A stretch of DNA of 48,341 bases from a virus: the IMG/VR virus record IMGVR_UViG_3300045988_161023; one strand, 5' to 3'. The notes below the pieces were generated by a model. The model was not told where the DNA came from, searched no databases, and worked only from the letters and a program-made list of their open reading frames with translations. Shown one piece after another: positions 36,187-38,279 of this stretch. The number at the start of each line of letters is the position of its first letter. Positions within the stretch are counted from its first letter, which is position 1. Both the position numbers and the translations under genes were made by a program.

Positions 36187-36690
36187 ATGAAGCTATACCA
36201 CGGAAGCATGATTGAACATCTGGCTATCTCTAACTCAGGAACAGGGTTAGGGTATAACTTCGGCGCGGTGTTCTTTGCCCGCACGTATGGAACAGCAAAG
36301 GGATACGGGGATTACGTCTACCAGTGCGAAGTAGACGTCAAGGACATCTTTTTTACGGAAGACCTTCCGTATCTTGATGACGGTGCTGCGGGAACGGCTA
36401 TACGTGAAATTATGGAAGAGCGCGGGATAGACGAAATCCATTTTGATCTATGTTGGCAAGCCGTGGTTTCGGAAGAACTGGACTTTCAAGAACGGGAAGA
36501 CTGGGCAGACCTTCTCGGAATGGACGAGGACGACGCGGGTTGGGAGGCTCAGGCCATGCGGATCGCCTTTGCCCGTAAGCTTGGATTTAAAGCTGTGGAG
36601 ATGGATGACGAATGCGGCAGCATTGCGGTTCTTCCCGAGTTCATAACGCTGGAAGCGGAAACGGAGGCAGACGATGAAGAGGAAGACTAA
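36187..36690 (+). CDS. DUF3990-like protein (MKLYHGS N-terminus; possible ART-fold enzyme) with an acidic tail
   Basis: ATG follows AAGGAGAAG. MKLYHGSMIEHL...GLGYNFGAVFFARTYGTAKGYGDYVYQCEVD resembles the DUF3990 N-terminal block with an H-Y-E-like spacing. The C-terminus reads EAETEADDEEED. The call is from memory of the family and not a search. Confidence 0.45.
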   Translation: MKLYHGSMIEHLAISNSGTGLGYNFGAVFFARTYGTAKGYGDYVYQCEVDVKDIFFTEDLPYLDDGAAGTAIREIMEERGIDEIHFDLCWQAVVSEELDFQEREDWADLLGMDEDDAGWEAQAMRIAFARKLGFKAVEMDDECGSIAVLPEFITLEAETEADDEEED

Positions 36691-38065
36691 GATAGACATC
36701 GACGATCTTATCGATTTCAGTTCAAAGCTGGTGAACTCGAATTCCAGCATCGGTATTCGCTTGTCGTCGGGTGCCGCGCTCTCCCTTCCGTACCTGTCCA
36801 CGAGGACATGTCTTGCGGCAGGGATTTCTATGCCGCTGGATACGGCAAATGGGGCCAAGGATGTGGGAAAAGTAAGTGCTCTATACAAAACACTCGAAGA
36901 GGGGGAGGAAGGAGAGAAAGCAGATACAGAGGCGGCATTGAAGAAAATCCGTAAAACAGGATTTGCTAGAAAAACAGAGTCTGTCGACAGACGGATTCGT
37001 CAACTGCTCATCCCTAAAGACGTACCCTCTGGGTATGTCTCTTTGTCTCCCCTCCCCTCCATTGGACTTTCCGTTTTGCTGTTAGGAGCCGTTACAAGGC
37101 ATAATCAAGATGTCTTTTCAAAAAAGAAGGAAGGTATCAAAATTCGACGGGCACATCTCGCTTTGGGCGGGGCAAACCCTCAGAATCTAGGATACGCTGC
37201 GTCCAAAAAGGCGATACAATATCCTATTTTTCTTTCTACACCCAAATCCGTGCGCGGAAATGCCAGCCGTCAGGCGTCAGGAAAGGGAACTTACCTGATC
37301 CTTTCCAATCTCTTTGTGCAAACGGCAAACATCTTGACGAATTATACTATGCTCAACGGCGCGCCCCTCTTTGCAGCATGGGGGATGGGACATGCACTGG
37401 AGCGCGAGATGCATGGTCCCAAAGTTACCGGAGTATGCCTTGTTGTGCATAGCATCGAACCCCTTGGGGAGCATGAAACCGCTATTTTCGAGCCTAGCCA
37501 AAGATTAGGAGCGGCTTTTACTTTTGAAAAATCCCGTAACGGGAGCGACTACGCAAAAGGCTCCACACATCTCTCTTTGCAGCCCGGTGCAACGGGGCAT
37601 ATACGGGTAAGCCTTATCTTTGAACTGTCGGAAGCCCTGCATTCCATACCGAACGCCGTGGATCTTTTCTTGAACTTCGGAAAGTTCTCCGGTGGGCTGA
37701 TCACTTCATACGACGCCCCGGCTTTGCATGATGACCGCTCTACGCTTCTAGAGTGCATTCCCACCGGGAAAGTTGTTTTGGATCGGCGCGACGTTATGAG
37801 CCCTGGAAACCCCATTGAACAGCTTGTAACCGCGATAGGAACGTACAGCGGAAAATGGCTGTCCGCAACGAATATCGGTTTTTCAGCAATCACAGACTTT
37901 CAAGTTCGCGGAGGGGCACGGAACGGGTGCCTCCATGCTTTTGCGGAGCCGCTGATCGGCATTACAGAATACGTCTCTACTGAAAAGAGGGTGAAAGGCT
38001 ATTTCTGGCGCAGCCAGTGGGAAGAAGATAGCTTTTTGATGAGGGGAGATTCAACAAATGAATGA
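36674..38065 (+). CDS. Large hypothetical protein (463 aa), family not recognised
   Basis: Overlaps the upstream stop (coupled). GC about 50%. No motif recognised for ATPase, nuclease, TIR, SIR2, HEPN or RT. Confidence 0.55.
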   Translation: MKRKTKIDIDDLIDFSSKLVNSNSSIGIRLSSGAALSLPYLSTRTCLAAGISMPLDTANGAKDVGKVSALYKTLEEGEEGEKADTEAALKKIRKTGFARKTESVDRRIRQLLIPKDVPSGYVSLSPLPSIGLSVLLLGAVTRHNQDVFSKKKEGIKIRRAHLALGGANPQNLGYAASKKAIQYPIFLSTPKSVRGNASRQASGKGTYLILSNLFVQTANILTNYTMLNGAPLFAAWGMGHALEREMHGPKVTGVCLVVHSIEPLGEHETAIFEPSQRLGAAFTFEKSRNGSDYAKGSTHLSLQPGATGHIRVSLIFELSEALHSIPNAVDLFLNFGKFSGGLITSYDAPALHDDRSTLLECIPTGKVVLDRRDVMSPGNPIEQLVTAIGTYSGKWLSATNIGFSAITDFQVRGGARNGCLHAFAEPLIGITEYVSTEKRVKGYFWRSQWEEDSFLMRGDSTNE

Positions 38066-38279
38066 TGCACAAGAAAAAAAGCAGGGTGGACGCCGTAAAG
38101 GATCTGGACGTAAAAAAAAGGTTGAAAATCGTGCAACAGTAAAGACTGTATCTATGCCGGCTCATGTCTGGGAACGGCTGAACGATGTATGTACGGATAG
38201 GGGTATCCTACGCTCACAGGTAGTACGGGAAGCAGTCGAGATGTGGCTGGACGCAAATATACAGCAGCTTGGAAAATGA
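38058..38279 (+). CDS. Ribbon-helix-helix (CopG/MetJ-like) DNA-binding protein
   Basis: ATGA-type overlap with the 463-aa gene. ATVKTVSMPAHVWERLNDVCTDRGILRSQVVREAVEMWL is a typical RHH beta-strand plus two helices. It has a basic N-terminal tail. Confidence 0.6.
   Translation: MNDAQEKKQGGRRKGSGRKKKVENRATVKTVSMPAHVWERLNDVCTDRGILRSQVVREAVEMWLDANIQQLGK

Follow-up and report, generated by a model that had tools for sequence, protein, structure and literature searches.

The window considered here is the whole of a 48,341-nt stretch of viral DNA (IMG/VR record IMGVR_UViG_3300045988_161023), in which all coordinates are counted from the first letter. Three overlapping genes on its plus strand (genes 1, 2 and 3; Table 1) are read here, with moderate confidence, as a phage operon directed against type I-F CRISPR systems, that is, an operon of anti-CRISPR (acr) and anti-CRISPR-associated (aca) genes, in which gene 2 would encode a defective tail subunit of the Csy complex. 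A sequence-only reading of the same DNA had proposed a toxin-antitoxin (TA)-like or anti-phage module. A role in counter-defence against type I-F systems takes the place of that proposal, because the product of gene 1 is assigned to the AcrIF11 family and that of gene 2 is composed of homologs of Cas8f and Cas5f.

The three proteins of the operon

Gene 1 belongs, by homology, to the AcrIF11 family of anti-CRISPR ADP-ribosyltransferases (ARTs), and the corresponding activity is predicted for it. Its residues 1-147 score 100.9 bits (E 1.1e-28) on the NCBIfam equivalog NF052490 (AcrIF11), for which the cut-off is 50, its homologs are annotated with PF26151 (AcrIF11_ADP_ribosyl), and its only sequence matches in the Protein Data Bank (PDB), 8DWQ and 6KYF, are both AcrIF11 structures. 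In HMMER alignments with 6KYF and 8DWQ, residues D141/E142 stand opposite D146/E147, the catalytic pair of AcrIF11Pae2, and opposite D115 of AcrIF11Pae1. The sequence-only reading had described a DUF3990-like or ART-fold protein with an acidic tail; the fold and the tail are borne out, whereas DUF3990 gave no Pfam match at E ≤ 1, the sole Pfam match being a weak one to ART-PolyVal. Published work has established that AcrIF11 ADP-ribosylates residue N250 of Cas8f, which blocks recognition of the protospacer-adjacent motif (PAM) and DNA binding. On the substrate side, the Asn of the motif GG[SA][NK]PQN is conserved in the Cas8f proteins of Bilophila and other Desulfovibrionaceae.

These data bear directly on the earlier proposal, in which an ART toxin would be paired with a ribbon-helix-helix (RHH) antitoxin or regulator. 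Both an ART fold and an RHH gene at the 3′ end are common in TA systems, and related phages bear genuine TA pairs at other hotspots (YoeB/Phd in L040). However, gene 1 is an AcrIF11 equivalog and this family has been reported to be CRISPR-specific; the middle gene is Cas-derived, and PADLOC returned Cas models only, and these for gene 2 only, with nothing for gene 1 or gene 3 and no other defence system. The type I-F arrays of the host clade also target this phage, as described below. A TA-like or anti-phage module is therefore considered highly improbable.

Gene 2, in which no motif could be placed by the sequence-only reading, displays clear homology to two Cas proteins. The PADLOC model of Cas8f aligns its positions 27-216 (of 401) with residues 10-193 of gene 2 (E 1.3e-20), and the Cas5f model its positions 1-249 (of 254) with residues 208-453 (E 1.3e-21). 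The second half also matches Pfam Cas_Csy2 (PF09614) at 40.3 bits against a gathering cut-off of 25; against the NCBIfam Csy2 equivalog TIGR02565 the score is 38.6 bits, far under the cut-off of 154.1. When the proteins of a genuine type I-F locus (L005) are used as tblastn queries, residues 41-275 of the 453-residue Cas8f fall at 36698-37246 (E 2.6e-24), and residues 2-273 of the 278-residue Cas5f at 37289-38059 (40.5% identity, E 6e-54). The homology of gene 2 is to these subunits and not to a virion or housekeeping protein. The protein carries the name "type I-F CRISPR-associated protein Csy2" at NCBI.

The invariant N-terminal motifs of Cas8f are common to gene 2 and the genuine proteins, and the homology runs through the sequence GGANPQN (residues 165-171, 37166-37186) to YPIFLSTP, ending at about residue 193. 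In the profile alignment, GGANPQN stands opposite the GGTKPQN of the solved Csy1 chain 9irf_J, a motif which we take to be the K247/N250 PAM loop of Pseudomonas aeruginosa Cas8f. Because of this correspondence, N171 of gene 2 is identified, by alignment, as the equivalent of N250, the target of AcrIF11. Every genuine Cas8f of the clade extends 135-175 residues past the point where the Cas8f part of gene 2 ends, and the segment missing from gene 2 is assigned, again by alignment, to the Cas11-like C-terminal helical bundle. In its place a 13-residue linker runs directly into residue 2 of Cas5f. In published studies, the helical bundle rotates upon R-loop formation to recruit Cas2/3, is essential for interference and contributes to the binding of double-stranded DNA.

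Structural comparison adds to this picture for the Cas5f part. An AlphaFold2 model of gene 2, built from an alignment of 20 sequences, has a mean predicted local distance difference test (pLDDT) score of 53, with most of the Cas8f part below 50. A Foldseek search of the PDB with this low-confidence model, of which the Cas5f core only is usable, gave 33 top matches, each of them either a Cas5f chain of type I-F or a Cas8/Cas5 fusion of type I-F3. At the sequence level, phmmer against PDB entries produced marginal matches to I-F3 fusions only, and a Cas8f profile was needed to reach the solved Csy1. A profile search intended to deepen the alignment of gene 2 returned almost no new sequences.

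The window contains no gene for Cas7f, Cas6f, Cas2/3 or Cas1, and searches of it found no CRISPR array, no solitary repeat (at up to 8 mismatches) and no match to an Rfam CRISPR family or to any other Rfam family. Gene 2 is thus not part of a CRISPR-Cas system, since the partner cas genes, an array and a solitary repeat are all lacking from the window. For the same reason, the lack of partner cas genes and of an array, an autonomous phage CRISPR system was rejected.

Gene 3 encodes a small protein whose N-terminal arm is basic and which, as judged by its sequence, is probably an RHH regulator. The sequence-only reading had called it a clear RHH protein; a regulator at the 3′ end of the operon is indeed probable, with all RHH matches below curated cut-offs. 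These comprise the Pfam families RHH_1 (E 0.056) and RHH_3 (E 0.1), a PHROG transcriptional repressor (1.9e-4) and the CopG structure 7by2 (E 0.046). Homologs of gene 3 were found among close relatives only, and in every relative the RHH gene holds the last position of the cassette. An RHH-type Aca has been documented in Aca14, whose binding site is an AT-rich inverted repeat that covers the -10 element (NAR 2026). By analogy, gene 3 is a candidate Aca-type autorepressor of the operon, with the repeat at 36108-36140 as its putative binding site. This perfect 14-nt inverted repeat, TTTTTTGAAAAAAT (36108-36121) and ATTTTTTCAAAAAA (36127-36140), overlaps the predicted promoter, for which a promoter scan proposed TTGAAA at 36112 and AAAAAT at 36136, while an extended -10 element, TGcTATTGT (36144-36152), was read by eye. 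The -10 element (TATTGT/CATAGT) and the sequence GT(A/G)TTTTCAACGAAAGGGA of the 5′ untranslated region are kept upstream of the cassette in three related contigs (L004, L035 and L039).

The arrangement of the operon agrees with its earlier description in that the three open reading frames (ORFs) are present on the plus strand, are coupled by overlaps of 17 nt (36674-36690, genes 1 and 2) and 8 nt (ATGAATGA, 38058-38065, genes 2 and 3), and lie between two terminators. Shine-Dalgarno-like purine runs are found 5′ of all three starts (AAGGAG for gene 1, GGAGG for gene 2 and GAGGGGAG for gene 3). A longer form of gene 1, starting from TTG at 36112, is unlikely because its homologs begin at MKLYHGS. 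Both terminators are judged to be real; the upstream one closes the preceding gene (35656-36006) and insulates the operon, and the downstream hairpin also serves the major-head gene (38353-39366, minus strand), which converges on gene 3. The ratio of nonsynonymous to synonymous substitution rates (dN/dS), computed against homologs in two other phages, stands at 0.21 in gene 1, at 0.12-0.20 in gene 2 and at 0.30-0.39 in gene 3. The three ORFs are judged to be real genes and not chance ORFs, because these ratios are low and because many independent contigs, both metagenomic and viral, carry the three genes together.

Table 1. Positions of the genes, of the parts of gene 2 and of the flanking signals in the window
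Feature	Position	Strand	Description or basis
Gene 1	36187-36690	+	167 aa, MKLYHGS start, acidic tail ...EAETEADDEEED
Gene 2	36674-38065	+	463 aa
Gene 3	38058-38279	+	73 aa
Gene 2, Cas8f (Csy1) N-terminal/central domain	36674-37252 (residues 1-193)	+	PADLOC, tblastn, profile alignment
Gene 2, linker	37253-37291 (residues 194-206, 13 aa)	+	alignment with genuine Cas8f
Gene 2, Cas5f (Csy2), full length	37292-38065 (residues 207-463 and stop)	+	PADLOC, Pfam, tblastn
Upstream intrinsic terminator	36025-36057	+	15-bp stem with 7 G-C pairs, then T-run; folding z = -5.1
Predicted promoter and candidate operator	36108-36152	+	inverted repeat over promoter elements
Downstream bidirectional terminator hairpin	38296-38332		16-bp stem, -38.9 kcal/mol; z = -7.1 (+), z = -4.9 (-)

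Distribution, origin and targeting of the fusion

The fused arrangement is rare, and it is derived and maintained. When 1.84 billion representative proteins were searched exhaustively with HMMER, 446 relatives of gene 2 were obtained, and among the best 150 of these 446 only one phage cluster, P0001, spans both halves of the query. The other matches among these 150 cover one half each, either residues ~206-457 (Cas5f proteins of 240-345 aa) or residues ~8-197 (Cas8f proteins of 333-444 aa). Eighteen genuine type I-F loci were examined, among them loci of Bilophila, Desulfovibrio, Lawsonia, Mailhella and Oxalobacter; in every one of the 18, cas8f and cas5f are distinct genes lying side by side, mostly with abutting stop and start codons. 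Because of this adjacency, one internal in-frame deletion would create the fusion. The phage copies form a clade of their own, outside the genuine host Cas5f sequences, in a neighbour-joining tree of which the topology alone was used, the printed identities being inflated by gap columns; between the phage fusion and the host proteins, identity is ~40%.

Both halves of gene 2 are, according to substitution rates, under purifying selection, with dN/dS of 0.14-0.16 in the Cas8f part and 0.09-0.24 in the Cas5f part (dS up to ~2.5). At least seven clusters, which span 60-98% identity, keep an intact ORF of 460-472 aa. A non-functional remnant of captured cas genes, travelling with AcrIF11, could be suspected from the shortening of gene 2 relative to genuine Cas8f and from its low score against the Csy2 equivalog; however, the selection on both halves, the intact ORF, the translational coupling on both sides of gene 2 and its retention on two phage backbones and through changes of gene order (see below) leave this explanation with very little credence. 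The related candidate of a decaying pseudogene is largely refuted by the same selection and conservation data.

The trio is also linked elsewhere, as the sequence-only reading had left to be examined. Twelve viral contigs of IMG/VR carry the fusion; AcrIF11 is adjacent in all twelve and an RHH gene in eleven, and no other cas gene (cas7f, cas6f, cas2/3 or cas1) occurs in them. A near-identical protein of cluster P0001 is indexed in 453 blocks of the contig collection. In the P0001 contigs that were read, the genes form a five-gene cassette consisting of a GNAT acetyltransferase, a 56-aa ORF, AcrIF11, the fusion and the RHH gene. The cassette resides on two unrelated phage backbones, an E217-like myovirus, as in the window, and a siphovirus, and its small neighbour genes are exchanged. 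The window has the same promoter as the five-gene form, without the first two genes. These two, encoding the 118-aa GNAT protein and the 56-aa ORF, lie between promoter and acrIF11 at 8947-9494 in L035-L042 and at 4947-5491 in L045 and L046; in L004 a different 56-aa ORF occupies the 56-aa position. Homologs of 59-60% identity display the order fusion, RHH, AcrIF11, and in L003 a GNAT gene is found in place of AcrIF11. The GNAT protein and the 56-aa ORF are candidates for additional anti-CRISPR proteins (Acrs), and the former recalls, as we presume, the acetyltransferase Acr AcrVA5. Such a mosaic, with genes exchanged around a regulator that stays constant, is typical of acr loci, in agreement with the Aca14 paper.

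Some of the related phages contain, in addition, a solitary type I-F repeat, CTTATCCGCCGCGTAGGTGGTTTAGAAG, located at 7877-7904 in L001 and L002, at 3134-3161 in L003 and at 5889-5916 in L053, on the minus strand relative to the fusion gene. The solitary repeat is identical to the repeat of a genuine Bilophila array in 25 of its 28 positions, and a G-U pair preserves the stem; its Rfam match, to CRISPR-DR4, is weak (18 bits). It is placed ~97 nt upstream of the 59-60%-identical homolog of the fusion, and a TTGACT hexamer resembling a -35 element lies upstream of it on its own strand. This repeat is a candidate RNA anti-CRISPR (Racr).

The type I-F arrays of the Desulfovibrionaceae clade target this phage. 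A spacer of the genuine I-F array in L054 matches the window at 23270-23301 in 31 of 32 positions, with a 5′-CC PAM (blastn-short E 7.5e-12), inside the ORF 23105-24007 (minus strand). A spacer of the Bilophila array in L007 matches 26084-26115 (27/32, CC PAM), within the minor-tail gene 24862-26670 (minus strand), and a second spacer of the same array matches the cassette-bearing siphovirus backbone (29/32, CC PAM). Positions 2820-2851 of another cassette-bearing phage contig, L049, are a 32/32 match to a spacer shared by the L054 and L055 arrays, where the 5′ flank is AC and not the CC PAM, perhaps as a PAM-escape variant. The I-F locus L054 is complete and has 91% nucleotide identity to contig L032 of 'Desulfovibrio sp. 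UMGS1582'. Both L054 (IMGVR_UViG_2513237322_000022) and L055 (3300023479_000088) encode cas2/3-cas8f-cas5f-cas7f-cas6f-cas1 with arrays on both sides, and both contigs are classed as viral by IMG/VR; they are probably host loci caught in provirus calls, or loci on a mobile element.

Proposed mechanism and alternative readings

In the mechanism proposed for the operon, the three products would act at different levels. Gene 1 would ADP-ribosylate the PAM-sensing Asn of host Cas8f (the last N of GG[SA][NK]PQN), such that Csy could no longer bind DNA. Gene 2 would descend from a captured cas8f-cas5f pair by deletion of the helical bundle, with the remainder of Cas8f linked to Cas5f, and would compete with the host Cas8f:Cas5f heterodimer for the 5′ handle of the CRISPR RNA (crRNA) and for the Cas7f backbone. 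The resulting bundle-less Csy complexes would be poor in R-loop stabilisation and unable to recruit Cas2/3. A precedent exists in type I-B systems, where viral cas genes have been co-opted as Acrs: AcrIB3 is a Cas5 homolog and AcrIB4 a homolog of the Cas8b C-terminus, and both enter a defective Cascade (Katz et al. preprint). Gene 2 would be a dominant-negative Acr analogous to these two. Gene 3, finally, would bind the 14-nt inverted repeat and shut off the operon after an initial burst. For the central step we lean, by analogy, towards competition of gene 2 during Csy assembly, giving defective complexes that would complement the block of PAM recognition by AcrIF11.

Several points weigh against this interpretation. 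Gene 2 keeps the PAM loop and the Asn targeted by AcrIF11, which fits a protein that engages DNA and might itself be modified by gene 1. Bundle loss is no proof of a dead complex, because the I-F system of phage ICP1 works with a Cas8f naturally devoid of the bundle, via Cas1-Cas2/3 (published). In Listeria, immunity was not inhibited when genuine Cas5 or Cas8b was overexpressed (Katz et al.), so that homology alone does not predict Acr activity, and the functions proposed for the three proteins of the window are themselves deduced from sequence. The poor model of gene 2 (mean pLDDT 53) leaves the geometry of the fusion within the Csy complex unverified. As for regulation, the matches of gene 3 to the RHH fold, although concordant, are weak and under the curated cut-offs throughout, and the 14-nt inverted repeat, which is identical in close relatives, is absent from the promoter of the second backbone, so there is no comparative support for it as an operator.

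The first two of these points lead to an alternative in which gene 2 is a working module that hijacks host Cas7f, Cas6f and crRNA. Its bundle-less complexes would bind DNA and silence competitors without a nuclease, or use the phage solitary-repeat RNA, while AcrIF11 disables host Cas8f. This would account for the retention of the invariant Cas8f motifs and the PAM loop under strong purifying selection, for the functional bundle-less Cas8f of ICP1 and for the solitary repeat upstream of the 59-60%-identical homologs (L001-L003 and L053). However, the window has neither a spacer-bearing array nor a solitary repeat, and a lone repeat gives no guide; with N171 retained, the co-expressed AcrIF11 would probably disable the gene 2 complexes as well; there is no evidence that host Cas1-Cas2/3 can be recruited without the bundle; and the conserved partner of gene 2 is an Acr, which is a better fit to inhibition than to exploitation. 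The hijacking model is for these reasons regarded as unlikely. A more elaborate version, which is quite unlikely, envisages the fusion as an AcrIF11-compatible replacement tail that turns host Cas7f-Cas6f-crRNA assemblies into nuclease-free complexes serving the phage. In related phages such complexes might be seeded on the phage solitary-repeat RNA, and possible uses are the silencing of rival elements or the sparing of the lysogen from self-targeting. If true, this would be the first virus known to re-equip a host Cascade by subunit substitution, and it would imply a three-layer anti-I-F strategy composed of an enzyme, a decoy protein and a decoy RNA.

Inhibition could also proceed by sequestration, with gene 2 binding and thereby depleting free crRNA 5′ handles, Cas7f or Cas2/3. 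Cas5f and Cas8f together are the module that binds the 5′ handle (published), a crRNA-depleting Acr with Cas homology is known (AcrVIA2), Racrs form aberrant Cas6f-Cas7f subcomplexes (published), and a solitary repeat accompanies the homolog of gene 2 in related phages. Nothing in the present data separates sequestration from the defective-subunit model, the two being variants of the same idea and not mutually exclusive; taken by itself, it is given a low probability. The formation of defective Csy complexes is the preferred account of gene 2.

Genomic setting and comparison with known systems

The window is a phage genome. Its minus strand encodes, from 46973 to 38353, the small and large terminase subunits, the portal, a Mu-F-like head protein, a protease/scaffold, a minor head protein and the major head protein, and the tail genes are located further along. 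The operon shares a plus-strand island of lower GC content (32647-38279) with genes for an HSDR_N-type endonuclease, a Bro-N anti-repressor and a small coiled-coil protein. Among database proteins, the nearest to gene 2, at 98% identity, is annotated from Bilophila wadsworthia. The operon is placed in an accessory island of a myovirus-type prophage of Bilophila (Desulfovibrionaceae).

Other features of the window were noted in passing. The endonuclease of the island (33282-34352, plus strand) is 356 aa long, contains type I restriction HSDR_N domains and matches phrog_4225 ('endonuclease', E 2e-114). A gene of the Endonuclease I family (44217-44963, plus strand; PF04231, E 4e-29) is inserted on the opposite strand between portal and large terminase, and related phages carry, at or near this spot, either SocA_Panacea with ORF6N or a YoeB/Phd TA pair; this spot is a second variable accessory hotspot. 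At 3078-3192, in the early region, the 23-nt unit TGGTAGGGGTGGGGTACCTAAAC occurs in three tandem copies (95% matches), with a degenerate 18-nt repeat after them, and these could be iterons or repressor-binding sites. The gene for the head protease/scaffold (40026-41756, minus strand) contains a 147-nt tandem duplication at 40564-40847 (1.9 copies, 74% matches). A tRNA search of the window found none.

The gene family of gene 2 has been catalogued before. Table S3 of Katz et al. lists the B. wadsworthia 3_1_6 provirus UViG_2562617176_000002 with cas8f (16736-17317) and cas5f (17348-18115) as separate orphan hits; this provirus was recovered here as L053 and holds a homolog 59% identical to gene 2. 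AcrIF11 is not mentioned in the text or supplements of the preprint, and a literature search for Bilophila, anti-CRISPR and type I-F together found no paper. The family is thus catalogued and not described. The elements that are new here are the recognition of a single bundle-less fusion, its obligate partnership with AcrIF11 and the RHH regulator, the purifying selection acting on it and the spacer evidence that the cognate system targets the phage.

According to a 2024 review, Cas proteins, unlike repeat RNAs, seem rarely to be recruited as inhibitors. If gene 2 does inhibit type I-F systems, it would be the first Cas-derived protein Acr of this type with detectable Cas sequence homology, and it would extend the defective-subunit principle beyond the type I-B system of Listeria. 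Its design is easy to read (two subunits fused, the nuclease-recruitment domain gone) and would provide direct evolutionary evidence of the way in which Acrs arise from captured cas genes, as well as a naturally occurring model for the engineering of type I-F complexes that are nuclease-free or switch-off. The cassette also bears on the phage-host dynamics of B. wadsworthia, a pathobiont of the human gut, and it is frequent in metagenomes from the human gut. On the practical side, the Csy2 annotation would mislead CRISPR-typing pipelines into calling orphan cas genes.

The enzyme and the candidate regulator can be set beside known proteins. Gene 1 shares with characterised AcrIF11 proteins the N-terminus MxL[FY]HGS, a catalytic Asp/Glu near ...VEMDDE... 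and a location in a prophage acr locus. It differs in its extra acidic tail of ~20 residues and in its host, a Desulfovibrionaceae type I-F variant in which the PAM loop reads GG[SA]NPQN and not GGTKPQN. Gene 3 would resemble Aca14 as a small protein, probably of the RHH type, whose gene closes an acr operon and in whose operon the core promoter is overlapped by an AT-rich inverted repeat; no sequence link between the two was established, and the homologs found for gene 3 are all from close relatives.

For gene 2, AcrIF3, AcrIF4 and AcrIF5 exploit the same weak point, namely the recruitment of Cas2/3 through the Cas8f bundle. They are small proteins that bind Cas2/3 or the bundle, whereas gene 2 would remove the bundle by subunit replacement. 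The I-F3 Cas8/Cas5 fusions of Tn7-like CRISPR-associated transposons (CAST) are likewise natural single chains, with weak sequence matches and clear fold matches to the Cas5 part of gene 2. By contrast, they are 520-700 aa long, keep the bundle and are encoded with cas7, cas6, tniQ, tnsABC and an array, while gene 2 has 463 residues and no bundle, stands alone, and finds its nearest relatives in unfused genes of the I-F1 type. An origin as a CAST I-F3 component was rejected, since only C-terminal fragments match the Cas85f models and both the bundle and the partner genes are missing. In the compact I-F system of ICP1, where Cas8f has neither hook nor bundle, a phage Cas8f is likewise cut to its central domain and paired with Cas5f. 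That system is complete (cas1, cas2/3, cas7f, cas6f and arrays) and used offensively, whereas the Bilophila phage has the tail module only, fused and beside AcrIF11.

The closest parallel is found in AcrIB3 and AcrIB4. Like these, gene 2 is encoded by a phage and homologous to subunits of Cascade, with ~40% identity to the bona fide proteins; it is found away from CRISPR-Cas loci, within an anti-defence cluster, and groups as a separate clade. The defective-subunit mechanism proposed for it is the same. Unlike them, it relates to type I-F instead of I-B and joins two subunits in one polypeptide. Its lesion is the deletion of the bundle, which predicts a block at the R-loop or at Cas2/3, whereas AcrIB3 and AcrIB4 act upstream of DNA binding. 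Finally, gene 2 differs from both in sharing its operon with an enzymatic Acr against the same complex.

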